In this document: piece after piece, positions 9,700 through 59,740 of the stretch
Numbering within the stretch: position 1 is the stretch's first letter
Layout of the letters: each line of letters starts with the position of its first letter
Virus record (IMG/VR): IMGVR_UViG_3300028364_001588
Source of the DNA: a virus
DNA: 64,000 nucleotides
Direction: 5' to 3' (one strand)
The notes under the pieces: generated by a model
Told to the model about the DNA's origin: nothing
What the model saw: the letters and a program-made list of their open reading frames with translations, nothing else
The model's database searches: none
Program-made: the position numbers and the translations under genes

Positions 9700-10419
9700 T
9701 TATTTTTTCTCCTTATCTCCAACAAACAAATCCTCTATAAAAGAAGGGTTAACATCTCTAATAGATTTGAAGCTATGTTCAACTTCATCGTACTGATTAA
9801 ATGGGTGCTCTATTTTTATAATAGTTTTTCCTTTTGGTACATTTTGAATAACTTCAGGAACACAATCAATTATAATATCACAATAATCCCATTTTTCATA
9901 ATCCTCTTGAATGAATGCTATGTTTCTAACTCTACACGCATTCTTTGCAAGGAAGTGAAATGTAGCTGGAATCGCTTTACTATCTGTATTAGATATAAGA
10001 ATTGTTTTATAAAGATTATTTTGAAGCCCGTAAGCCTGAATTCTGTTTAGCGCATCTGAAGCTCCTTCATACTCATCAGCGTCTCCATATATCTTGAAGG
10101 GCTTGATGTTGTTCATGAAGTTTAAAAGAGCCTCTTCTGGTGATAATACAGTTTCTCCATCAAGAGCAATTTCCTCTCCGAACTTGTAGTGGTTGTTCAA
10201 GTTGTATGTATTAACTGGAAGAGATATAAGCTCTTTCTCTTGAAGGTTTATTCTTTTTTCAAGATTTTCCAACTCTTCTTCAGTGTTCTCCTTTACAGTC
10301 ATATCTTTGTTCATCTCTACAAGAGATGGATTGTGGATATATTTACTTCTGTATTGTTTATCAAACGCACTATGAAGGTCTCTCAATACTCCGTCAATGC
10401 TAATTCCTAATGTTTTCAT
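9700..10419 (-). CDS. HAD-like 5'(3')-deoxyribonucleotidase-related protein
   Basis: GISIDGVLRD (motif I, first Asp replaced by Ser), DIIID, HPFN. Confidence 0.6.
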   Translation of the reverse strand: MKTLGISIDGVLRDLHSAFDKQYRSKYIHNPSLVEMNKDMTVKENTEEELENLEKRINLQEKELISLPVNTYNLNNHYKFGEEIALDGETVLSPEEALLNFMNNIKPFKIYGDADEYEGASDALNRIQAYGLQNNLYKTILISNTDSKAIPATFHFLAKNACRVRNIAFIQEDYEKWDYCDIIIDCVPEVIQNVPKGKTIIKIEHPFNQYDEVEHSFKSIRDVNPSFIEDLFVGDKEKK

Positions 10420-10465
10420 TTTCTAAATTTATAATGTCCTGGTAAATAGTTGTAGAAATTTAAAC

Positions 10466-10495
10466 AAAAAAAAGAGGAATATCAAATTCCTCTTT
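10466..10495 (-). terminator. Intrinsic terminator of the original A1-like gene 3' end
   Basis: AAAGAGGAAT/ATTCCTCTTT stem with U-run on minus, directly after the orphan IHFIRGGYTTFE* stop. Confidence 0.7.
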
Positions 10496-10499
10496 CATC

Positions 10500-10538
10500 T
10501 TATTCAAATGTTGTATATCCTCCACGTATGAAGTGTAT
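10500..10538 (-). pseudogene. Orphaned original 3' end of the A1-like gene (IHFIRGGYTTFE*)
   Basis: Translates to a near-copy of the current C-terminus IHFIRGCFTTLD* at 11426-11464. Confidence 0.8.
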
Positions 10539-10572
10539 TTATATAAATAAAATTTTTACCTATTTATAAATT

Positions 10573-11442
10573 ATGAAAACAAATAAGTTTATAGAAGAGT
10601 CGATTAAAATTCATGGAAATCGCTATAATTATAAAAACACAAAATACACAAACGCAAGAACTAAAATTAAAATAATTTGCCCAGAACACAATGAGTTTGA
10701 ACAGTTGCCTGGAAATCACAAAAGAGGTAATGGATGTCCTAAGTGTATTTATAACAAATTAACTAAAAAAGAAGTTTTAAAGCAATTTAAAAAAATACAT
10801 GGAGATAAATATGATTATTCTTTAATTGATTACAATGGAGATAATGTTAAAGTAAAAATAATTTGTTCAGAACATGGAGTATTTAAACAAGTTCCAGGAA
10901 TACACAAATTAGGTAGTGGTTGCAAAAAATGCGCTGGACTTGAGAAATTAGATAATGAAAAAGTGGTGGAGCAATTTAAAGAAACACATGGAGATAAATA
11001 TAATTATTCTTTAATTAACTATATTAATGCTCATACAAAAGTTAATATTATATGTCCAGAGCATGGAAGGTGGAGACAAACTCCAAATAATCATAAAAAC
11101 GGAAATGGGTGTCCTATATGTAAAGAATCTAAAGGAGAAAGAAAAATCAGAAATTTATTAAATGAAAATAAAGTCAATTTCATCTCGCAATATAAATTTA
11201 AAGATTGCAAAAATATATTGCAATTACCTTTCGATTTTTATTTACCAGAATATAATATATGCATTGAATACAATGGAATGCAACATTATAAACCAATTGA
11301 ACACTTTGGGGGTAGACTTGGTTTCAAAAAAAGAATTATTAATGATAATATAAAAAAAGGATATTGTGAAAAAAACAATATCCTTTTAATAACTATTAAC
11401 TACAACGAAGATGTAGAGAAAAAACTTAATCTAAAGTGGTAA
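10573..11442 (+). CDS. Free-standing homing-endonuclease-like protein (3 zinc-finger repeats plus Vsr/PD-(D/E)xK domain)
   Basis: Three IICxEHxxxxQxPxxHKxGxGCxxC repeats; FDFYLP..ICIEYNG.QHY nuclease motif; opposite strand to neighbours; own TATTTAT at 10561. Confidence 0.8.
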   Translation: MKTNKFIEESIKIHGNRYNYKNTKYTNARTKIKIICPEHNEFEQLPGNHKRGNGCPKCIYNKLTKKEVLKQFKKIHGDKYDYSLIDYNGDNVKVKIICSEHGVFKQVPGIHKLGSGCKKCAGLEKLDNEKVVEQFKETHGDKYNYSLINYINAHTKVNIICPEHGRWRQTPNNHKNGNGCPICKESKGERKIRNLLNENKVNFISQYKFKDCKNILQLPFDFYLPEYNICIEYNGMQHYKPIEHFGGRLGFKKRIINDNIKKGYCEKNNILLITINYNEDVEKKLNLKW

Positions 11443-13051
11443 AACACCCTCGTATAAAGTGTATCTGCTGGGCTTTTCCATCTGAGTGAATAATTGAGTG
11501 TGATTGCAACCACGGGCTTGCTCCAATATTATATCCAACTCTAAGAATTGTAGAAGTTCCTACTTGAATTACTCCATCCATACGGCCTGGAGAGTGTGAA
11601 TGTCCAATAATCATTTTTGTACTCAACTTTCTAAACTGAACAATTGACCCACGACTACCTGAAGCTCCGATGTCTCCATGTTGTCCAACTTCCCATTCAT
11701 GAATTCTATGAGTGTGGCTTCTGCCCAGTGTAATGAAATTAGGAAACTTTTCGTTAATCAAATAAGGAATAACTCCATCTGGAGCATCTTCCCCAAGCAA
11801 CAAAGCCGCATAGTTCATGTAACAAAGAGAGTTTTTCATTGTTGACTCTTTTCTCCAATCAACATCTCTAAGCCATCTGTCAAGGAAATCATCATGATTA
11901 CTTCTAACTATGACTGTCTTATATTCTCTGAATGCCTCAAGGCCATCAAGCATAAAATCAATCTCTTTTTTAAGGTCGTTCTTTCCAGAGATTTCCTTTT
12001 TGTATTGAGCAAACGCATCCTTTCTGTCGTGATGACTAATAGAGTGTCCGTCAAAAACATCATGAAGAACTACCTCTTTAGGCTTCAGCTTTTTAAACAA
12101 AACATTTAAAGTTGTATTCATTACATCTTTATCTGTTTCGCCAAAGTGAATATCCCCAAGAATAGCGCCATCAATAGACTTATTTCTCTTTATAACTGTT
12201 TTACCAATCAACTCTTCTCCTTGAAATGTTAGGCCAGGTATTAAATCAACCTCTTCATAACCACCATCAAAAGACACATTATAATAAAGGTCGTTAAAAT
12301 TACCATCTTCCGTTGCAGTGACTTGCCTTGTGTAAAAAACTTCTTCATCTTTAATCTCAACAACAACAAAACCAAGGGTGTGGTGAAACTCTCCTTTCTT
12401 TCCTGCTTTTGAGTCTGTATAATTTTCTAAAGTTACAGCTCCAGTTGTCATCATCATCTTTGGTGCTGTACCTTCTAATGCAGAAACCATTTTCATTTGC
12501 ATCTTAGGGTGTCCAAATATAGATGATTCTGGTCCAGAAAAACCTTCCAATGCTGTCATTGGGTTTGTGGCTGTAGGAGAAATTTTGACATCACCACAAA
12601 CAATCAATCGCTTGTGAGCATTTTGTCTTGCGGCAAATAAATAAGGCTCTACTCTTGAGTGCCATGATTCAAAATCTTTATCATCAAATACAGATGTTGG
12701 ATTTTTGTATCTACCAGCTATTATATGAACTTCTGCGTTAATCTCTTTTGCATAAGCTTCGATATTTCTAAGAAACACTTCGTGTACTGGAGTGTTGTTT
12801 TGTGCCCATGTAAATATGAATCTCTTAGATTTTTTGCTAATCTTTTTCTTTTTAGCTTTTTTGAACTGGGGTGAATCCTCAGTAGCAGTTTTTTTAATTC
12901 CAAGCTTTACAAGCCAGTTTCGAGTTGTTTTTTCGCCTTTTCCGAAAAATTGCATTAACTCACTTATCCTTTCGTCATAAGCTAAATTGGATGAATAATA
13001 AATCTCCTTCGCATGAAGAATATCATCCTCTGTTAGTTTTTTGAATTTCAT
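11426..13051 (-). CDS. T5 A1-like metallophosphoesterase/nuclease (likely start MKFKK at 13051)
   Basis: AQNNT, GHPK, TTG..T..NY...KAG.K.EFHH, GDIH, HDVFDG.SISHH, SNHD, HGD.G..GSRGS and GHSHSP motifs as in T5 A1; extra N-terminal HTH-like segment. Confidence 0.75.
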   Translation of the reverse strand: MKFKKLTEDDILHAKEIYYSSNLAYDERISELMQFFGKGEKTTRNWLVKLGIKKTATEDSPQFKKAKKKKISKKSKRFIFTWAQNNTPVHEVFLRNIEAYAKEINAEVHIIAGRYKNPTSVFDDKDFESWHSRVEPYLFAARQNAHKRLIVCGDVKISPTATNPMTALEGFSGPESSIFGHPKMQMKMVSALEGTAPKMMMTTGAVTLENYTDSKAGKKGEFHHTLGFVVVEIKDEEVFYTRQVTATEDGNFNDLYYNVSFDGGYEEVDLIPGLTFQGEELIGKTVIKRNKSIDGAILGDIHFGETDKDVMNTTLNVLFKKLKPKEVVLHDVFDGHSISHHDRKDAFAQYKKEISGKNDLKKEIDFMLDGLEAFREYKTVIVRSNHDDFLDRWLRDVDWRKESTMKNSLCYMNYAALLLGEDAPDGVIPYLINEKFPNFITLGRSHTHRIHEWEVGQHGDIGASGSRGSIVQFRKLSTKMIIGHSHSPGRMDGVIQVGTSTILRVGYNIGASPWLQSHSIIHSDGKAQQIHFIRGCFTTLD

Positions 13052-13116
13052 AAATTGTTGTCTTATTATTTCTTCTAAGTGCAAATTAAAGAAAAAAAAG
13101 GCAACCAAACAAATAT

Positions 13117-13940
13117 TTATCTACTTTTTAAAATCTTAACCCACTCATCAAGACTCTTTTCTGGTCTCCAATTCAGAACTTTCTCTGTATCTGAGGGAAA
13201 TTCTTCTGAAGTAAATCTTTCTCCTTTTCTTTCTGGAATCATGATTACATCATCACTAAATTTCTTGGCAAGTTCAATCAATTCAACATTTTGCCCAGAA
13301 CGAAGCATCCACTCTCTGTTTAAATTCATGTGAGTTGTCATCTCAACTCCACGAACAACGTCTTCAACGTGTGTAAAATCTCTTGATTGAGTTCCAGGAG
13401 AAACCACAGTAATTGGCCTGCCTTCTTTCATAATGTTTTTTGTCTGCGGAAACCCAATCATCACGAAGTGTGGTTGGGATGAGCAGGCCTCTTTTTGTTA
13501 GTATACGACAAATATACAAAAAAAATTTAATTAATTTCAAGTTTTCTTTTTTTTATCTGCACCACCATTTCCAAATTTAGAACTACTGGCTGAATAAATT
13601 ATTTTTGGCACCTTTTCTTTTACAGTATTCAATAACTTCAGATGTACCACGAAGATTTGATTTCATAACATACTCTATGTCATCAAAGCTTTTGACAATT
13701 CTTGAATATTCTCCAAGGTGATATACGATGTTTGGGTTAAACTGAGTTGTTACAAATCTAAGGTTTTATTTCCCAAGTATTTCCATGAACATAGTGAACG
13801 CCATCAATGTGATTATCTCTACTCCCTGTGAAGTAATTATCAAGAGCCATTATTTCAGCATAAGGATGCTCTTCTTTTAAATGCTTTACCAAGTGAGTTC
13901 CTATAAACCCAGCCCCGCCCGTTACTAATATTTTATTCAT
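13117..13940 (-). pseudogene. NAD-dependent epimerase/dehydratase pseudogene
   Basis: VTGGAGFIG N-terminus; frameshift at ~13765 continuing YHLGEYSRI; second frameshift at ~13605 continuing IIYSASSSKFG; YxxxK region missing; C-terminal RDFTHVED domain intact from 13431. Confidence 0.85.
13436..13560 (-). promoter_or_regulatory. Promoter (TATATTTG 13509-13516) plus hairpin leader and new ATG, inserted in the epimerase pseudogene
   Basis: TTG..TATATTTG; hairpin at 13443-13487; flanked by GCAGAYAAAAAA direct repeats. Confidence 0.55.
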
Positions 13941-14970
13941 GTTCTAAATCATATTTAACCATTCTTTCAACAAGTTCGTCAAGGTCAACTTTTGCCTCCC
14001 ATCCAAGAACCGCTTTTGCCTTTGATGGGTCTCCAATTAACCTATCAACTTCTGCTGGTCTAAAATACCTTGGGTCCACCTCTACAAGCAGGTCTCCAGA
14101 TTCTTTGTCGTAACCTTTTTCATTCACACCCTCACCTCTCCATTCAATATCCCAACCAAGATGTTTAGCTGTCATCTCAATAAATGTACGAACTTTATAA
14201 GTTCTACCAGTTGCAAGAACAAAATCTTCTGGCTTATCCTGCTGCAACATTCTCCACATTCCCTCTACATACTCCTGAGCATGTCCCCAATCTCTTTCTG
14301 CCTCCATGTTGCCAATAGTCAAAACCTTACGCTTGCCTTTTTTGATTTGAGCCATGTTGGTTGTAATCTTTCTTGTAACGAATGTTTTACCTCTTCTCTC
14401 ACTTTCGTGATTAAACAAAATTCCATTGCATGCAAATAAATTATAGGATTCACGATAATTCTTGATTATCCAAAAACCATAAAGCTTAGCGCAGCCATAA
14501 GGGCTTCTTGGGTGCATCGGAGAGTTCTCGTCATAAAAACCTTCACTGTTCTTGTTATACTCAAGCCCTCCATATAATTCAGAGGTTGATGCTTGGTAAA
14601 ACTTAGCACCAGGACAATGCGCTCTCATTGCTTCAAGAATAGTAAGCGTTCCAAGTGCGTCTACATTTGCTGTATAGTGAGGTACTTCAAAAGAAACTGC
14701 AACATGCGATTGAGCTGCCAGGTTATATATCTCATCTGGCTGAGTCTCTGCAATAAGCCTCATAATGTTTGAGGGGTCTGTAACATCTCCGTGATGAAGA
14801 TGAAGTCGCTCGTGGTCCATTATGTGTTCAATTCTTTCTGTATTGAATGTACTTGCTCTTCTCATTGTTGCATGCACCTCATACCCTTTTTCTAAAAGAA
14901 GTTCCGCAAGGTAAGAACCATCTTGTCCTGTAACGCCCGTAACCAGGGCAATTTTGTTTTTTTCTATCAT
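13933..14970 (-). CDS. gmd: GDP-mannose 4,6-dehydratase
   Basis: [64 protein letters not shown]. Confidence 0.97.
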
Positions 14971-15782
14971 ATTTCCCACTTATATTTGTATTGTTCCATT
15001 ATTCCTTTTTCGGGTGTAATCCATTTCAAAAAAGCAATTGTATCTTTTTTATCAAACCTTATTCTATTTCTACTTGTTACTGATGGTTTAAATCCTTTTT
15101 TATTTAATTTTTCTACTAAAAATTGATTATCTTCTTTTGTAAAAGAATCTGTGCATAAATAAACATTTCCATCAGTTGTATAACCGTCTCCAACAAACCA
15201 CCAATAGCAAGATTTTGGTGTAATCAAAATATCTCTTGGCACTATTTTTTCTTTTTTTGGATACCATCTTAAATTTTCACTCAATAAATCATGATACATA
15301 TTAGATTTGGAGTGATAACATTTTGTATGTTCGCTTTGCCAAATTGGACTAAAATCAATAGAATGTAATTCTTTAAAAATCTCTTCTGGAGTTTCTTTAA
15401 ACTTAAAGCCAAAAGTCAATCTTGCTGATATTCTTGATTTTTCAGATAAACACCCGTCACTTAGTAATAATCCATCTAAAACCTCTTTTTCTTCATTACT
15501 TAAATTACAGTACCTAAATTTAGAATCATCCCATTTACTTGATTCGCTCATTTTTTCTTTAGACTCTTCTGAATGACTTTTTCCATAAAAGGCGTTTAAA
15601 TCACCTTTTCTGCCCTTTTTTTTATTAACTTCATCTGAATACTTTCTACCCTCACCTTGTTGGCCATTATATCTTCCAGAACAAACTCTGGAGCAAAACT
15701 CTTTTTCTCTTTCTCTTTTTCTTTTGGGATTAAATTCAAACTCTTCATTACATAATTTGCATTTCTTTTTTTCCTTTTCCAT
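14967..15782 (-). CDS. LAGLIDADG homing endonuclease with zinc finger and NUMOD3 motif
   Basis: LDGLLLSDG and WWFVGDG motifs; [17 protein letters not shown] (NUMOD3); CxxC..FCSRVC; own TATTTAT at 15794-15800. Confidence 0.85.
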
Positions 15783-15817
15783 AACTTTTTATTATAAATA
15801 GTTATAAAAATTTCTAT

Positions 15818-15859
15818 TCCAGCAATACCTGTTATAAATGCATTTTATATTCTTCGCAT
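15818..15859 (-). pseudogene. Decayed orphan 5' end of gmd (MRRI*NAFITGIAG)
   Basis: In-frame ATG, one TAA, then the Rossmann motif AFITGIAG ending just before the QDG of Gmd. Confidence 0.55.
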
Positions 15860-16131
15860 TTTAATTTTTCTCTTCTATAATAAAAATCGTTATCATATTC
15901 ATCTTTTATAAATTCTCCAACAGTTAAATTTGATAATCTAATTCCAATTGTAGGTGAATACATATAATTAAACAACATTTCTAAATTACTATTAGTTGCC
16001 TTCATAAATGATTCGATGTTTAATGTGGATTTAATTCTATTATAATAATCCTCTTTACCTTCAAACATTTTCTCGTTTACTATTTTTAACAACTCCGCTT
16101 CTACGTCTATACCATATTTTTTCATATCCAT
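15832..16131 (-). CDS. Hypothetical protein
   Basis: Coupled to the ColD stop codon. Confidence 0.5.
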   Translation of the reverse strand: MDMKKYGIDVEAELLKIVNEKMFEGKEDYYNRIKSTLNIESFMKATNSNLEMLFNYMYSPTIGIRLSNLTVGEFIKDEYDNDFYYRREKLKCEEYKMHL

Positions 16132-17312
16132 TACTTAATTGCGTCAGTTACTGTTTTACAAATAAACTCTATTTCCTTCTTGCCCATCTTAGGGTGATTA
16201 GGAACATAAATACCACAGTCATCGACTGTTTTTGCATTTAGAGTTTCGTGTCTACCATATCTTTTGATGAAGAAAGGTTGAGTTCCCATTGAGCCGCAGA
16301 TAAGTGGTCTACACTCAACATCAGCTTCAATAAGTGCTGCTACAGCTTTTTCTTTATCTTTCTTAGATTGGAATATCATTGGATAACAAAAAGATGCTGT
16401 GAATGAATCTTTGTGCTCTGTCGGCTTCCATATTTTCTTTTTCTTGTCGTATGATTTAATTGCATCCAAGAAGTAGTAGAAGTTTTCGTTTCTTGTATCA
16501 ATCATGTCATCAACTTTATCAAGCTGCTTAATTCCAATTACTGCCTGAAGGTCTGTTGACCTAAGATTGAATCCTGGCTCATAGAAAGTGTATAAGGCAG
16601 AGAATTCATCCACTCCCCACTTAGTTCTTAATCTTTGTTGAGTCGCTGAGTCAAGGTCTCTATCCCACCCATGACTTCTAAGCATTACAAGAAGGTCATA
16701 AACATCTTTATCGTTCGTACAAACCATTCCGCCCTCAATAGTACTCATTGTATGGCCGAAGTAAGTTGAAAACGATGACATCAATCCAAAGTTTCCAAGA
16801 CGAACTCCGTCAAACTCAGTTCCTTGAGATTCACAATTGTCTTCGAGAAGTTCAACTCCATAAGTTTTACAAAGTTCAACAATCTTATCCATATCTGGAG
16901 AAAGACCAAGAACTGAAACAAGAATCATTGCTGCAGGTTTGTGGTGTCTAAATATAGCTTCAAGTTGACTTACATCAACAGCAAGATTATTCATGTTACA
17001 ATCAACGATAAGAGGGTCGAATCCAAGTTGGATTACTGGAGCCATATCAGTTGCCCAAGCAAGAGCTGGAACCACCACTTTATTATTTCTTAGGTTACCC
17101 ATCACTTTAAGCGCATAAAGCATGAGAAGGTTCGCTGAAGAACCAGAGTTTACAAATACAGAATATTTACTACCAATCCATTTGGACCATTTCTCTTCAA
17201 ATTCTCTCGTTTTTGGTCCCATAGTCAAGCGGGGCGCTGGTTTTTGAGACAACCACTTTATAAGGTTTGCAATATCCTCATCATCTATTGTGTCTTTTAC
17301 TAATTTTATCAT
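16131..17312 (-). CDS. colD: ColD-type GDP-4-keto-6-deoxymannose 3-dehydratase (DegT/DnrJ PLP family; likely start 17312)
   Basis: VNSGSSANLL, EDNCES, STYFGHTMSTIEGG with His at the Schiff-base Lys position, RSHGWDR, GFNLR. Confidence 0.8.
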   Translation of the reverse strand: MIKLVKDTIDDEDIANLIKWLSQKPAPRLTMGPKTREFEEKWSKWIGSKYSVFVNSGSSANLLMLYALKVMGNLRNNKVVVPALAWATDMAPVIQLGFDPLIVDCNMNNLAVDVSQLEAIFRHHKPAAMILVSVLGLSPDMDKIVELCKTYGVELLEDNCESQGTEFDGVRLGNFGLMSSFSTYFGHTMSTIEGGMVCTNDKDVYDLLVMLRSHGWDRDLDSATQQRLRTKWGVDEFSALYTFYEPGFNLRSTDLQAVIGIKQLDKVDDMIDTRNENFYYFLDAIKSYDKKKKIWKPTEHKDSFTASFCYPMIFQSKKDKEKAVAALIEADVECRPLICGSMGTQPFFIKRYGRHETLNAKTVDDCGIYVPNHPKMGKKEIEFICKTVTDAIK

Positions 17313-17317
17313 AATTT

Positions 17318-17611
17318 TTATTTTTGATTTATAAACATATTTGCTATACACTTTGAAATAATATTCAAATTTTCTTTAAAGAAATCTTCACCTTCTGGAG
17401 AACTATTCCAAAACATAAATCCTGGAGTATTTTCAATTTTTTTCATTTGTTCTATATTTTTTTTTGACACCTCTTCATCAACTCTTAACTCTAAACAAAT
17501 ATTTTGTCCTAACTGAATTGTTCCTTGGTCGTCTTTTTTTAAATAACCAACCATACCAACTGGCATTTCTGTTTTAAAAACTTCTTTAAAATAAACCTCT
17601 CTTATTGTCAT
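17318..17611 (-). CDS. Hypothetical protein (possible cargo of the adjacent endonuclease insertion)
   Basis: Lies between the endonuclease gene and the replacement colD 5' end. Confidence 0.5.
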   Translation of the reverse strand: MTIREVYFKEVFKTEMPVGMVGYLKKDDQGTIQLGQNICLELRVDEEVSKKNIEQMKKIENTPGFMFWNSSPEGEDFFKENLNIISKCIANMFINQK

Positions 17612-18604
17612 TTATATTTCGTTTAATTTTTTATTTAACCCGTTCTTTATTAAAAAATTATTATAAGCATCTGCAGCTTCAATCTCTGTATCAAAAGTTC
17701 CAACATACTTATGTTTTCCATTATTCCAAACACTTGTCTCCCATTTATCTTTTTTAGCTCTATATGTTACTCCTGTGAATTGAGAGGAAAACTTCTTAGA
17801 GATGTCTATGCTCTTCCAGTCTTTTATGTTGTTTAATTTTGTCTCATCTCCATATAGCTCATAAGCTTTCTGGTTGTATGCAACAGCTGCATCAATTTCT
17901 TTTTTGAAGTGTCCAATAATAATCGACTCTCTATCAAACCTCAGCGTAGCTCTATAAAGCTTTTGAGTAGATATGTAGCTTACTCCTATAAAATTGGAAC
18001 TTGAACTGTCGTGTTTATAGCCAATTCCATTTTTAGAAATCTTGTCTTTAATCTCTTGACTATGTGTCCTGCCCAAATTTATCTCTCTCAATTTTTCTTT
18101 TGTCTCGTCAGACATCTCCCTGCCCTTATTTGCTTCAGAGATTTTCCTACTAATCTCCTTTTTCTTTTTCTCAGAGAAGTTAGAACGTGTCTTCATCATT
18201 TTCTTTTTCACCTCCTCTGGGGGCTTTCTTCCAAGAAGCTTTCCTTTGTTGCCTTTAGAAATTTTTCTCTTTGTTTCCTCCGATAAAATCCTTCCAGTAG
18301 CGCCTTCTCCTCCGTCTGTAGCATTAACCAAAATTCCTTTACTCTTATCCGCTCTTCCGAGTAATTTTATATAAAACTCCTCAGCGTAATTACATCTACC
18401 TTCACTCTCGCAAATTTTAACCAGTTTTATCTCTGGCAATAAACCTTCCTTTTTGAGAGACTTAATCCAGTTGGTCTTATGAGTTCTTGATGAGTCTTGC
18501 ATGTGCCCATTCATTAGTCTATAAGTTAACTTCTTAGTGGTTTTGCCCACGTATCTAACTTCTCCAGCCCTTGGGTCAATTAGAAAATAAATTTTGTATT
18601 CCAT
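17612..18604 (-). CDS. GIY-YIG-like homing endonuclease with NUMOD3 repeats and two AP2 domains
   Basis: IYFLIDPR..EVRYVGKT, N.TDGGEG, SEETKRKIS repeats, two FxGVxY...G.F..EI.AA.AYN AP2 domains; TATTTAT at 18609-18615. Confidence 0.85.
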   Translation of the reverse strand: MEYKIYFLIDPRAGEVRYVGKTTKKLTYRLMNGHMQDSSRTHKTNWIKSLKKEGLLPEIKLVKICESEGRCNYAEEFYIKLLGRADKSKGILVNATDGGEGATGRILSEETKRKISKGNKGKLLGRKPPEEVKKKMMKTRSNFSEKKKKEISRKISEANKGREMSDETKEKLREINLGRTHSQEIKDKISKNGIGYKHDSSSSNFIGVSYISTQKLYRATLRFDRESIIIGHFKKEIDAAVAYNQKAYELYGDETKLNNIKDWKSIDISKKFSSQFTGVTYRAKKDKWETSVWNNGKHKYVGTFDTEIEAADAYNNFLIKNGLNKKLNEI

Positions 18605-18637
18605 AACTATAAATAGCTAAAAAAACTAAATTATTAA

Positions 18638-18742
18638 CTAACCTTTTGTAAGTCTTGGGTAGGTTTTTAACCATTCGATTAAGTTGTCTACATCATCTTT
18701 GTCGATGGTGTCTTTTACGAGTGCAATTTTTTCTTTAGCCAT
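18638..18742 (-). pseudogene. Orphaned original 5' end of colD (34 aa)
   Basis: MAKEKIALVKDTIDKDDVDNLIEWLKTYPRLTKG* versus the intact MIKLVKDTIDDEDIANLIKWLSQKPAPRLTMG. Confidence 0.85.
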
Positions 18743-18795
18743 GTTTCATATCATTTTAATAATAATATGAAAATCATTTCAAATAATCAAGTGGT

Positions 18796-19710
18796 TTATT
18801 TCCAGGTTTGCTGTAAAATAGAATAGGTTGAGCCTATTCCGTGATAAAGTCTTGTTGGTTTAAAATCTGGAAATATACTTTTCATTTTTTCTATTGAAAC
18901 ATCTTTTCTAAATTGACCATCTGGCATTGTTGAATCATATTCAATTTTCATACCATCTGCTTTGCAAGCTCTGATTGCTGCTCTTGCAATATCATCAATA
19001 GAAACATTTTGTTCTGTAGCCACATTGAAGCTGTCATAAACGTTTTCATAAATACATCTTCTGATGATAGCAGCAAGGTCGTTTGAGTGCATAAACTGTC
19101 TCAACGGAGCTCCTGTTCCAAATAAAGTAATTTTTTCTTCACCAGTAGATTTTGCTTGGTGAATCTTTTTTATGAGCGCAGCAACAAAATGACTATTTTC
19201 TCCAAACTTATCGTGCTCTCCATAAAGATTGCAAGGAGTAAGGTATTGATAGTTGGTGCCGTGTTCTTTATTGCAAGCATCTATTTGAACTGCCAGGCAT
19301 CTCTTAGCGTATCCATATGAAAAGTTTGTAGGAGTCGGAGGCCCTTGGTGAAGCATCTCTTCTGTCATTGGGTATTCGTCAACTTTATCTGGATATATAC
19401 ATGTACTTAGTATTCCAATAAATCTTTCAACACCATTAAACTTAGCATACTCAACAAGGAGCGTGTTCATTAAAACATTGTCAGTAAAATAAGTGGATGG
19501 CTTTTTTATATTGTCAATTATTCCACCAACTTTTGCTGCAAGATGAATTACTATTCTTGGCTGAAGTTCTTGATACATTTGAGCAACGCCTCTTTCTGAT
19601 GTTAAGTCATAGTCTTTTGACGATAAATAAACTGCGCCTGGCATTATCTTTTTAAGCGACCTGCCAACCATCCCGCTACCACCTGTAATTACTATCTTAT
19701 TTTGTTCCAT
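18796..19710 (-). CDS. fcl: GDP-L-fucose/GDP-L-colitose synthase (Fcl/ColC family)
   Basis: TGGSGMVG, HLAAKVGGI, STCIYP, YGYAKR, PCNLYG, GTGAPLRQF, PDGQFRK. Confidence 0.92.
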   Translation of the reverse strand: MEQNKIVITGGSGMVGRSLKKIMPGAVYLSSKDYDLTSERGVAQMYQELQPRIVIHLAAKVGGIIDNIKKPSTYFTDNVLMNTLLVEYAKFNGVERFIGILSTCIYPDKVDEYPMTEEMLHQGPPTPTNFSYGYAKRCLAVQIDACNKEHGTNYQYLTPCNLYGEHDKFGENSHFVAALIKKIHQAKSTGEEKITLFGTGAPLRQFMHSNDLAAIIRRCIYENVYDSFNVATEQNVSIDDIARAAIRACKADGMKIEYDSTMPDGQFRKDVSIEKMKSIFPDFKPTRLYHGIGSTYSILQQTWK

Positions 19711-19713
19711 TTT

Positions 19714-20496
19714 TTATATTTTAATCCAACCTTCGCAATAAATATCCTTCGTATCATGAGAAGCAAGCGCTGCTCCAAACCACAAACTTGGAGCTATAAC
19801 TGTTTTTTCTAAATTTCTGTTAAGCCAAGCTCCCCACCAACTAAAAGATGAGTTACAAATTATATTATTTTTACAATGACTCATCAAATAAAGGTCTTCA
19901 TAATCTTTATTACCTTCAATAAATTTGAATTTTTCAGGTAGGTCTGGAAAGTTGCTCTTACACCATTCTATGTCATCAGAAAATATTAAGAACACAGAAT
20001 CTTTGGGCATTTTTTTAATTGCCTTCATATAGTAGTTCATACTTTGAGTGGGGTGGTGATTTGGTGACTTTAGATAATCGCCTCTTCTAACGTGAATAGA
20101 ACAAGTGTTTTCATTACTAAGAATATCTTGCATTTCTTCACTAATATCCACATCGTATGACATAAACTCTTTTCTTATGTCCTCTTCGCAGTCTTTAAAG
20201 TATTTCTCAGACTGATAATAACCAGACAAAAGCACGTTTCTATCTGGATAGTCTGGAACCTCTTGATAATGGAATCCATTTTCATTATGTTGTATTTGTG
20301 AGTTTATAGGATTAGAAAACTCTATATTTTTTAATATATTATCTTCATATGTGTCAATGCTTTTGTGTACAATAACAACTCCTTCTTTATATAAAATAAG
20401 TTCTTTGTTAAATTTTTTTGAATATGAGTATGCAACTGCTATTTGAAATAGTATGTTGCCAATTCCGCCCTGAAGGGTTGTAGTTACTTTATTCAT
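19714..20496 (-). CDS. GT11 alpha-1,2-fucosyl/colitosyltransferase (likely start 20496)
   Basis: GGIGNILFQ, GYYQSEKYF, SIHVRRGDY, FSDDIEWC, NSSFSWWGAWL. Confidence 0.92.
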   Translation of the reverse strand: MNKVTTTLQGGIGNILFQIAVAYSYSKKFNKELILYKEGVVIVHKSIDTYEDNILKNIEFSNPINSQIQHNENGFHYQEVPDYPDRNVLLSGYYQSEKYFKDCEEDIRKEFMSYDVDISEEMQDILSNENTCSIHVRRGDYLKSPNHHPTQSMNYYMKAIKKMPKDSVFLIFSDDIEWCKSNFPDLPEKFKFIEGNKDYEDLYLMSHCKNNIICNSSFSWWGAWLNRNLEKTVIAPSLWFGAALASHDTKDIYCEGWIKI

Positions 20497-23926: not shown

Positions 23927-24553
23927 TTATTCTTCTGTACTCTTATCATCAAGAGGTCTTGACAATGGTTGAGATACACTTTTTCTCATTCTCTCCGCCT
24001 TAATAGTTGGACATTTAGCGCCACAAGCATGAATAAGCTGGTAGAAAAGTACAAGTGTTAAAATCTCTGTTGTGTGAAAATATTCTGTATCAAAAGTAAG
24101 CTCATGAACCCCTTCTGGTAATACATCAGAACGCTGTCCAGAAATCATTGCAGCCTTATAACCATGTTGTTTAGCCCAATAAAGAGCAGACACTACGTTT
24201 TTCGATGTTCCAGAACATGAAAGACCTACTACAAGAGCGTCTTTGCTAATTTTATCAGTCTTTTCAAAAAGACCTAACCATTCAACAAATAAATTGTTAA
24301 ACCCATAGTCATTAGCAACAGATGTCATCATACACTGACTTTCCATTGTATATACCATCTTTTTTATATCGGCTTTAGCAAACAATCTATTACAATCGTC
24401 TGCAGCATGATTACCTACAGCCCAAAGACCTCCGTTTGCAACAACGTAAACTTCGCTGCTTTCTTTAAACATTTTCAAAAATTCTTTGTATTCTTCTGTT
24501 TCCAAAGTATTCGCAAACCTTTCTTCAAAGTTCTCAAAATCAAGATGTTTCAT
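23927..24553 (-). CDS. SIS-domain phosphosugar isomerase (GmhA-like)
   Basis: ANGG....NHAADD, ANDYG, LSCSGTSKNV. Confidence 0.8.
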   Translation of the reverse strand: MKHLDFENFEERFANTLETEEYKEFLKMFKESSEVYVVANGGLWAVGNHAADDCNRLFAKADIKKMVYTMESQCMMTSVANDYGFNNLFVEWLGLFEKTDKISKDALVVGLSCSGTSKNVVSALYWAKQHGYKAAMISGQRSDVLPEGVHELTFDTEYFHTTEILTLVLFYQLIHACGAKCPTIKAERMRKSVSQPLSRPLDDKSTEE

Positions 24554-24632
24554 AATTTTTATATTTTTTATATTTTTTATATTTTATTTTATCAAAAATA
24601 CTAAAAAAAAAAGTACGAACCAAATGTATTTG

Positions 24633-25385
24633 TTATTTATCTACAAATAATTCATCAAATTCTACGTATTCTAAAAACTCATTTATTGGAGAATCTGGTG
24701 AACTTGATATAATTTCAAAATCAGGTATACTTTTTTGTTGCTCTGAGAAAAGCTTCCAGTAGTGCGTGCCTGCGTGATAAGTGTCTTTTCCTTGGTTTAC
24801 TCCCTCTTTGAACGTTTTAATATCAAAGTAGTCTGGTCGAAAATGACTTAAATCCTCGTTTGAAGCAACGCTTGCGCTTCTACTAACATATTTAGCATCC
24901 ACACCCAAAAGAACTACTCTTTTATATCCAAGAGAACGAGCGACATCCACAGCGCATGCTCCAGCGTTTCCACAGAAGCTAACCCTCTTTCCATCAAGTT
25001 CATGACTCGTATCTTTGGTGGTTTTTAAAAGACTCCCACTTCCGCAGTCAGATATTCTGACTATTTTTTCTCCATTTTCTGACCTCATTTTATCAACCCA
25101 TCCCGACATTTTGTAAGGATTGCCAAGGTGTTTCATTATGAAAAGCTTTTTAATATCTCTTTCTTTTATTATGCTTTCTATATCTTTGTGAATTGTTTTT
25201 ATCAACTTAGAGTCTATAATAAGATAATAAGTTGGAGTGAACCCCCAGTCATCATAAGCAATATACTGTCTATTCATACTAATCGTATTTTGACCAGCCA
25301 GTTTAGACATATCTATTTTGTTTAAGCTTTTTCCACTGCCTATGATAAAAACAGTATCCTTATTTGCTATCTTATCGTTTTTCAT
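24633..25385 (-). CDS. DUF115/Maf-like (CMP-sugar transferase-like) protein, paralog 1
   Basis: FIIGSGKSL, MNR, GYKRVVLLGVD, HF.PDYF. Confidence 0.7.
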   Translation of the reverse strand: MKNDKIANKDTVFIIGSGKSLNKIDMSKLAGQNTISMNRQYIAYDDWGFTPTYYLIIDSKLIKTIHKDIESIIKERDIKKLFIMKHLGNPYKMSGWVDKMRSENGEKIVRISDCGSGSLLKTTKDTSHELDGKRVSFCGNAGACAVDVARSLGYKRVVLLGVDAKYVSRSASVASNEDLSHFRPDYFDIKTFKEGVNQGKDTYHAGTHYWKLFSEQQKSIPDFEIISSSPDSPINEFLEYVEFDELFVDK

Positions 25386-58951: not shown

Positions 58952-59740
58952 ATGAAATCAGGAATTTACAAAATAACAAACACCATTAACAAAAAGGTCT
59001 ACGTTGGACAGTCAGAAAATTTAAACACAAGATATAGTAGGCATTTATATAGAATCAAAAGGAGTGAACATCACAACGAACACCTTCAGAGGTCTTTTGA
59101 TAAATATGGTGAGGATAATTTTATTTATGAGATTTTAGAAGAGACAGAAGATTTGTCTCTCATGGATTTAAGAGAGAAATTTTGGATTGACTATTATGGA
59201 GGAATTAATAGCGATGATACATATAATCTAAAAGACCCACTTCTCAATGAGCACAATGATTATGTTAAAAGCAAGTTAAGTAAAATTAATACTGGAGAAA
59301 ATAATCCTAACTATGGAAATAAGTGGTCAGATAAACAGAGAAAGAAAATGTCTGAGTCAAGAAAAGGAAAAAATTGGGAAGAATTATATGGGAAGAAGAA
59401 ATCTGATGAAATGAAAAAAGAGGCGGCAGAAAGAAAAAAGGGGAGCACACAGTCTGATGAGACAAAAGAGAAGATAAGGGAAGCTAATATTGGAGATAAG
59501 AATCCAGCATATGGAAAAGGTAGTAGGCAGAGAGGAAAGAAAAATCCAAATTTTGGTAAAGCATCAAGTCAAAGAAGAGGTTTATTGCAATTTAGTAAAG
59601 ATGGTATTTTAATTAAAGAATATGAATTTTTATCTCAAGTAAAAGAATGTGGGTTTCATATTGGAAATGTAGCTTCTGCAGCAAGGGGTGACTTAAAATC
59701 TTCTGGAGGATACATCTGGAAGTATAAAGATGAAAAATAA
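58952..59740 (+). CDS. GIY-YIG homing endonuclease (Seg-like) with NUMOD3/NUMOD1 motifs
   Basis: SGIYKITN..N.KVYVGQS, R...H, E..WI, YN; NPNYG repeats; GGYIWKY. Confidence 0.92.
   Translation: MKSGIYKITNTINKKVYVGQSENLNTRYSRHLYRIKRSEHHNEHLQRSFDKYGEDNFIYEILEETEDLSLMDLREKFWIDYYGGINSDDTYNLKDPLLNEHNDYVKSKLSKINTGENNPNYGNKWSDKQRKKMSESRKGKNWEELYGKKKSDEMKKEAAERKKGSTQSDETKEKIREANIGDKNPAYGKGSRQRGKKNPNFGKASSQRRGLLQFSKDGILIKEYEFLSQVKECGFHIGNVASAARGDLKSSGGYIWKYKDEK

Follow-up and report, generated by a model that had tools for sequence, protein, structure and literature searches.

Three putative terminus-replacing homing endonuclease cassettes inside conserved genes of an uncultured marine phage

Introduction

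The WHO elements at the yeast FBA1 locus are homing endonuclease genes located next to a gene whose end has been exchanged (Coughlan et al. 2020, eLife, PMC7282813). The stranded fragment of the old end was proposed to act as a recombination arm, and the new end confers resistance. This homing model was proposed and partly demonstrated, and cleavage by WHO6 was shown (PMC7282813). Here we describe three loci with a comparable organization in an uncultured marine phage (IMG/VR record IMGVR_UViG_3300028364_001588). The analyzed DNA, referred to as the window, is a stretch of 64,000 nt within a 101.5-kb IMG/VR viral contig that is ~31% complete according to CheckV. At all three of these loci in the window, a free-standing endonuclease gene is located between a complete gene and a stranded duplicate of the adjacent end of that gene, which we call the orphan. 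We interpret these loci as terminus-replacing homing cassettes, in each of which a promoter-like motif of the phage and a free-standing gene for a homing endonuclease are combined with a short foreign copy of the end of the target gene. Judged from the sequence comparisons below, the probability of this interpretation is roughly 0.85.

The WHO elements and the phage cassettes both have the endonuclease gene between a full-length chimeric gene, which is resistant in the case of WHO, and a stranded end fragment. Discordant ancestry of the gene parts, replacement of a gene end and the absence of splicing are also common to both. There are clear differences as well. WHO elements are nuclear and meiotic, belong to a single intein-derived nuclease family and replace 3' ends only. 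In contrast, the phage cassettes involve three unrelated nuclease families and both 5' and 3' ends, have replaced tracts of 27-107 nt and are known from sequence alone. Unlike in WHO, the nuclease gene at the phage A1-like gene is antisense to its target and overlaps the end of it, and the replacement end is encoded antisense to the 3' end of the nuclease gene.

Gene hybrids created by mobile open reading frames (mORFs) are found in fungal mitochondria, in atp6 of Allomyces and in atp6, atp9, cox2 and nad3 of Glomus (PMC3630166). Similar to the phage loci, a foreign C-terminal duplicate is inserted together with an endonuclease open reading frame (ORF), and the stranded native end, located downstream, resembles nuclease-free relatives more closely than the inserted end does (PMC3630166). 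The mORFs affect C-termini only, and their reading frame is often in phase with that of the host gene (PMC3630166). In the phage, by contrast, each nuclease is encoded by a gene of its own that is preceded by a promoter-like motif. Of the three cassettes in the window, two exchange an N-terminus and therefore supply a new start codon.

In T-even phages, free-standing endonuclease genes occupy intergenic positions or divide a gene so that two functional polypeptides result, as in Aeh1 nrdA, T4 gene 39/60 and gene 43 (PMC2988022). The Seg and Mob endonucleases, which include free-standing GIY-YIG and other nucleases, cut the naive allele of a neighboring gene during co-infection, and the flanks are co-converted (PMC2988022). 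The repair pathway of the cassettes described here is likely the same as in this intronless homing. However, no stranded duplicate gene end is described for Seg and Mob (PMC2988022). The insertions in our phage are neither intergenic nor do they divide a gene into two working parts; they interrupt reading frames, and a substitute end makes the gene complete again. Our literature search found duplicated or replaced gene ends beside homing endonucleases in the mitochondrial and yeast cases and no description of them in phages, although the subscription literature was thinly covered and this is weak evidence.

Results

Orphan gene ends resemble the uninterrupted genes of nuclease-free relatives

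The three loci have the same layout, in the order orphan gene end, CTATTTATA motif, free-standing endonuclease gene and complete gene with a foreign adjacent end (Table 1). The 3' end of the A1-like gene is paired with a Vsr-like nuclease, the 5' end of gmd with a LAGLIDADG nuclease and the 5' end of colD with a GIY-YIG nuclease. A preliminary description of the window, made without database searches, had reported pairs of orphan and replacement ends for these three genes, and we located all of them. The two copies of each gene end are only 51-74% identical to each other.

If the orphans are the former ends of the interrupted genes, the uninterrupted alleles of relatives should resemble them. 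We compared the window with related contigs, designated here by L numbers. The syntenic relatives L006 and L007 lack all three nucleases. L003, with ~90-93% amino acid identity to the window, lacks the LAGLIDADG and the Vsr-like genes, and its contig stops within the 97-aa ORF. In a test set beforehand, and as the preliminary description had predicted, the uninterrupted alleles of these nuclease-free relatives are of the orphan type and not of the replacement type at all three sites.

The colD orphan matches L007 in 84/101 nt and L006 in 83/101 nt, versus 56/110 nt for the colD start of the window itself. Its similarity to L007 (83%) is as high as that of the colD body (79%), which is expected if the orphan is the former start of the recipient's own gene. 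The gmd orphan matches the gmd start of L006 in 19/23 nt, including an exact 14-mer, versus 13/23 nt for the gmd start of the window. It is frameshifted by a one-base deletion. A peptide pattern for the gmd motif matched solely true gmd genes and such orphans in the six-frame translation of ~176 kb. At the A1-like gene, the last 15 nt of the orphan are identical to the A1 end of the nuclease-free L003, whereas the live A1 end differs; the A1-like protein of the window has 93% amino acid identity to that of L003. The terminator hairpin behind the orphan is kept downstream of the A1 region in both L003 and L007.

Replacement ends have a foreign ancestry

The ancestry of the complete genes was analyzed at sites where a nuclease-bearing and a nuclease-free reference genome differ, and we scored whether the window follows the former (cassette-type) or the latter (lineage-type). 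The side and the approximate place of each breakpoint were predicted beforehand, and the breakpoint itself was picked after seeing the data. In gmd, the first 70 nt contain 3 cassette-type and 1 lineage-type sites, compared to 1 and 58 in the rest of the gene (Fisher p 4e-4). In colD, the numbers are 21 and 11 for the first 107 nt and 27 and 67 for the rest (Fisher p 3e-4). For the A1-like gene, L027 and L003 served as the cassette-type and lineage-type references, respectively; the last 27 nt follow L027 at 6 sites and L003 at 2, and the rest follows them at 72 and 477 (Fisher p 1.4e-4). Cassette-type sites are concentrated at the nuclease-proximal end in all three genes, and the remainder of each gene follows its own lineage.

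The cassettes recur at conserved junctions

An endonuclease gene beside a stranded duplicate was also found in L052, L101, L027, L004, L029, L031, L140 and L134. Six further lineages (L101/L102, L027/L028, L004, L029/L030, L031-L034 and L140) have the LAGLIDADG cassette inserted at the gmd codon used in the window, and an orphan is found upstream of it. Homologues of the nuclease are found directly upstream of gmd in L101, L027, L029, L031 and L140. In L004 the gene is internally deleted, and only its two ends remain. L029/L030 and L031-L034 are higher-GC contigs, and L140 is a contig binned to a Kapaibacterium metagenome-assembled genome (MAG). The cassette in L140 (L140:2440-3420) is located between a DegT-family gene and gmd and has a 12-nt gmd remnant upstream. 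L101/L102 carry the same gmd orphan as the window, while L027, L004, L029, L031 and L140 have independent orphans at the same codon. The cassette starts directly 3' of the Gln codon in the nucleotide-binding motif in the window, L101, L027, L004, L029 and L031. All nuclease-bearing gmd alleles (7/7) differ from the consensus of the nuclease-free alleles within the 15 nt that precede the insertion point.

We considered a synonymous CAG-to-CAA change at the insertion point as a universal immunity mutation. This was rejected, as CAG is retained in L101 and CAA also occurs in distant nuclease-free alleles.

In a tree of the gmd core, from which the replaced tract was excluded, the window pairs with the nuclease-free L003 and L101 pairs with the nuclease-free L006, within a clade supported at 96/97. 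The window and L101 share one gmd orphan, yet they pair with different nuclease-free genomes. Carriers and non-carriers are interleaved on this tree, and carriage is therefore patchy.

The other two cassettes have counterparts as well. A GIY-YIG homologue (82%) is found upstream of colD in L101/L102. The cassette in L101 has the same left junction as that in the window, a degraded orphan and no 97-aa passenger ORF, which is present in L003. Vsr-like homologues that are convergent with A1 and overlap its end are found in L027, L052 and L071. In L052, an orphan A1 end and a terminator are present, and the cassette boundary is the same as in the window. At the position of the Glu that all nuclease-free A1 alleles keep, C or G is found in the four alleles with a nuclease at the 3' end. 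In L071 (L071:3986-6359), both nuclease genes flanking A1 are truncated or frameshifted and the replacement A1 ends are retained. Judging from these lesions, L071 is a late stage of the proposed homing cycle.

A fourth cassette was found in the same genome outside the window, at L134:1435-2470 (G000:C1 about 24150-25180). It includes a complete 291-aa gene whose start is repeated as a 15-codon orphan; a TATTTATA motif and the gene of a 311-aa Vsr-like nuclease lie between the two, in this order from the orphan.

In L052 (L052:2303-5745), nuclease genes have invaded both ends of A1. On the 5' side, a 46-codon orphan is accompanied by a Vsr-like nuclease gene, and on the 3' side a convergent Vsr-like nuclease gene is found with an orphan and the terminator. 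An additional GIY-YIG gene is located just upstream.

The nucleases belong to different families

The LAGLIDADG nuclease is recognized by Pfam (LAGLIDADG_2, 62 bits, and NUMOD3), and D109/G110 and D199/G200 are invariant in five homologues. A sequence search of the PDB with this protein returned marginal matches to I-SceI only. The GIY-YIG nuclease matches PF01541 with 25.3 bits against a cut-off of 22.6 when its N-terminus (residues 1-98) is scanned alone. The search for homologues returned 465, and Y6, Y18, G20, R29, E75 and N94 are conserved. Homologues of 80-89% identity are on record, together with a 99%-identical copy from another source. A scan of viral contigs with a single-protein pattern found no relatives of this nuclease, and an alignment-based scan found distant ones only; the metagenome scan yielded L101-L103.

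The nuclease associated with A1 is less readily classified. Its three repeats are Zn-finger treble clefs with matches to DUF4379, CapR and DUF723. The AlphaFold model of the protein has a pLDDT of 88.7. The predicted fold of the C-terminal domain is most similar to 3r3p (I-Bth0305I; probability 1.0, TM 0.59-0.60 by target length), with a Foldseek E-value of only 0.01, followed by Escherichia coli Vsr (1cw0). A DUF559 match of 16 bits is below the cut-off, and a PDB sequence search found nothing. E232, H238 and D258 are conserved, and position 234 is Asn in the subgroup of the window and Asp in most homologues. I-Bth0305I, an EDxHD enzyme, is intron-borne, whereas the A1-associated nuclease is free-standing and carries the Zn-finger repeats. 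The model suggests a Vsr-like enzyme and a candidate relative of the I-Bth0305I family. Because of the weak E-value and the sub-threshold DUF559 match, we refer to it as Vsr-like only. Of the family assignments in the preliminary description, those of the LAGLIDADG and GIY-YIG nucleases are upheld by Pfam, and the Vsr-like part of the third nuclease stands at the level of a predicted fold.

The cassettes use a motif of the phage group and do not require splicing

The CTATTTATA motif occurs 12 times in the window versus 1.2 expected, an excess of about ten-fold. At 10/12 sites it is located 3-22 nt upstream of an ATG. Further sites include 5036, 30365, 48494, 48535, 51794, 55992 and 56548. Each nuclease had been proposed to possess its own promoter. 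The motif is indeed found 3-10 nt before each nuclease ATG, but it is general to the phage group rather than specific to the cassettes. Since most of the genes behind it do not encode nucleases, the motif belongs to the phage group and is used by the cassettes. As a candidate phage promoter, it may give rise to near-leaderless mRNAs.

An Rfam scan of 9500-19800 yielded no family at E<=1. Ribozyme cores and splicing blocks were not identified at these loci, and no gene continues across an insert. In each case the downstream gene is complete and repeats the orphan codons instead of continuing them, so no splicing is needed. These results agree with the preliminary description, in which no intron core or intein was visible.

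Organization of the region and neighboring features

The region is mostly encoded on the minus strand. In the order of transcription, it starts with an fcl-like epimerase gene, followed by a 34-codon ORF, the GIY-YIG/NUMOD3/AP2 gene, the 97-aa ORF and colD. The 99-aa ORF, the LAGLIDADG gene, gmd, a frameshifted epimerase gene and the A1-like gene come next, and the plus-strand Zn-finger nuclease gene, the terminator and a 239-aa gene follow.

Table 1. Positions of the cassette components and adjoining features in the window
Feature	Position	Strand	Remarks
Intrinsic terminator hairpin and T-run	10467..10497	-	formerly after original A1 end, now after orphan; read directly
Orphan A1-like 3' end, 12 codons and stop	10500..10538	-	directly before terminator hairpin
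CTATTTATA promoter-like motif	10560..10568	+	4 nt before nuclease ATG
Free-standing endonuclease gene, three Zn-finger repeats and Vsr/I-Bth0305I-like domain	10573..11442	+	convergent with A1; Pfam, PHROG 559/9084, AlphaFold
Replacement A1 3' end, last ~27 nt	11426..11452	-	17 nt dual-coding with opposite-strand nuclease gene
A1-like DNA transfer / metallophosphoesterase gene, complete	11426..13051	-	PHROG 1745, E 2e-148
gmd (GDP-mannose 4,6-dehydratase), complete	13933..14970	-	Pfam 476 bits; first ~70 nt (14901-14970) are the replacement end
Free-standing LAGLIDADG endonuclease gene (Zn finger, NUMOD3, two LAGLIDADG motifs)	14967..15782	-	stop overlaps gmd ATG
CTATTTATA motif	15793..15801	-	10 nt before LAGLIDADG ATG
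Orphan gmd 5' end, 23 nt, Rossmann-motif codons	15819..15841	-	overlapped by stop of 99-aa ORF
99-aa ORF, variable colD-gmd spacer, outside cassette	15832..16131	-	no Pfam or PHROG match
colD-type DegT/PLP enzyme gene, complete	16131..17312	-	Pfam; first ~107 nt (17206-17312) are the replacement end
97-aa passenger ORF between nuclease gene and colD	17318..17611	-	no family match (Pfam, PHROG)
Free-standing GIY-YIG / NUMOD3 / AP2 endonuclease gene	17612..18604	-	Pfam
CTATTTATA motif	18608..18616	-	3 nt before GIY-YIG ATG
Orphan colD 5' end, 34 codons, ATG to TAG	18638..18742	-	homology to intact alleles ends abruptly at 18642

The A1-like protein is closest (39-43% identity) to phages of Flavobacteriia (Maribacter, Cellulophaga, Flavobacterium). 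Megablast of 10000-19000 against cultured phages gave zero matches. No such cassette is present in Maribacter phage Panino and Cellulophaga phi4:1, the nearest cultured relatives by A1 protein.

Several other features of the region and its relatives were observed. The SDR epimerase gene between gmd and A1 (13117-13940, minus strand) is broken into pieces of 60, 37 and 115 aa. In L003 and L007 it is an intact 289-aa gene, and in L006 a 174-aa ORF. The spacer between colD and gmd contains different small ORFs in every relative. In L003 (L003:1486-2921), a ~125-codon ORF upstream, homologous to a 141-aa ORF of L027, reads in frame into gmd with no stop. The gmd gene of L012 (L012:7220-9463, plus strand) is a 747-aa ORF with a ~400-aa in-frame intein-like insert in the middle of the enzyme, at a site different from that of the LAGLIDADG cassette. 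The window contains a further GIY-YIG/NUMOD3 gene (58952-59740, plus strand, 262 aa) with no orphan gene end. It occupies a conventional intergenic position, flanked by the terminator of a 585-aa fibre-like gene on one side and by a small lipoprotein-like ORF on the other.

Discussion

A model for terminus-replacing homing

Our analysis suggests how such cassettes might spread. A carrier phage and a naive phage would co-infect the same cell, and the nuclease would cut the naive allele close to its end, within conserved coding sequence. Likely targets are the Rossmann-motif codons of gmd, the codons around PRLTKG in colD and the last codons of A1. The carrier genome would then serve as the template for break repair. 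One crossover would occur in the gene body just past the replacement end, and the other in or past the orphan fragment, which would provide the second homology arm. The recipient would then carry the nuclease gene and a complete but chimeric gene, and its old end would persist as an orphan that is either untranslated or truncated. The new gene end would differ at the target and presumably resist cleavage. The nuclease gene would decay later. The first junction of this kind could stem from one-sided illegitimate repair, as in T4 (PMC2988022).

The model draws on the anatomy of the sites, the recipient-type orphans, the foreign tracts, the presence and absence of the cassettes in close relatives, the recurrent junctions and the decayed stages in L004 and L071. 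The splicing-free invasion unit envisaged in the preliminary description is likewise supported by the orphan-type naive alleles, the foreign ends, the recurrence with the same junctions and the interleaved carriers on the gmd core tree.

Several observations weigh against this interpretation. The gmd orphan of 23 nt and the A1 orphan of 39 nt are short for a homology arm. The mosaic breakpoints are post hoc and the sites are few: 4 sites are informative in the tract of gmd and 8 in that of A1. Exceptions exist to the CAG-to-CAA change at the gmd insertion point, and an A1 3' orphan was sought in L027/L050 and L071 and none was found. In addition, the nucleases of the window and L027 are 58-65% identical in amino acid sequence, and the flanking genes 52-66%. 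Due to this similar divergence, old vertical inheritance with loss is not fully separable from repeated gain.

Alternative explanations

The divergence data are also relevant to an alternative in which each locus is a scar that arose once, by one-sided homologous and one-sided illegitimate break repair, and was inherited vertically thereafter, with nucleases that are no longer mobile together with gene ends. One-sided repair of the illegitimate type has been documented in T4 intron homing (PMC2988022), the window and L101 share their gmd orphan by descent, and the nucleases have diverged about as much as their flanking genes. It is difficult to reconcile single origins with six gmd lineages that have conserved junctions and differing orphans and span low-GC phages, high-GC phages and a bacterial MAG contig, or with carriers interleaved with non-carriers inside a well-supported clade. 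The colD orphan, which is as close to nuclease-free relatives as the colD body and still has an open frame, suggests a recent event. We therefore regard this explanation as improbable. The direct repeats of a gene end that flank each nuclease gene could also be read as tandem duplications, created by slippage or unequal recombination, between which endonuclease genes landed by chance. However, the identity between the two copies is only 51-74%. By ancestry, the copy within the gene belongs with other nuclease-bearing genomes and not with its own lineage, the layout is identical for three unrelated nuclease families, and no relative has the duplication without a nuclease gene or its remnant. 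This origin is very improbable.

Because these endonuclease families are often carried by introns or inteins, and the relative L012 has an intein-like insert in gmd at another site, the orphans could be thought to be true exons or exteins that are joined to the gene body, or parts of split genes. However, no intron was detected by Rfam, the downstream genes have their own start or stop and duplicate the orphan codons, and the gmd orphan is out of frame, which makes splicing or gene splitting extremely improbable. We give just as little credence to chance similarity or an artefact of metagenome assembly. Two of the orphans are short and the source is a metagenomic contig, but the gmd motif pattern has zero background matches in the translated sequence, the same structures are found in independent assemblies from different samples, and a nearly identical GIY-YIG protein was recovered from another source. 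Terminus-replacing homing thus remains our preferred interpretation of the three loci.

Implications

The cassettes would represent a third route by which a homing endonuclease gene can enter a phage gene without killing it, in addition to self-splicing carriers and gene splitting. For three uncharacterized nucleases, they also pair a naturally occurring target that is presumed to be sensitive (orphan-type) with one presumed to be immune (replacement), so that the recognition sites of these nucleases are testable at once. Short orphan ORFs and oddly divergent termini in phage genomes may be explained in this way, which bears on gene calling, core-gene phylogenies and recombination analyses. 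The presence of a gmd-specific LAGLIDADG lineage across very different phages and in a bacterial MAG contig suggests that the ends of sugar-pathway genes travel between hosts.

A broader proposal, which we put forward tentatively and at slightly less than even odds, is that terminus-replacing cassettes are a widespread and still active route for at least three endonuclease families into phage reading frames, and perhaps into bacterial sugar-gene clusters, without introns or inteins. The orphan would then be a portable homology arm, and each event would import a short foreign gene end. If this is true, such cassettes would continually remodel the termini of conserved phage genes.

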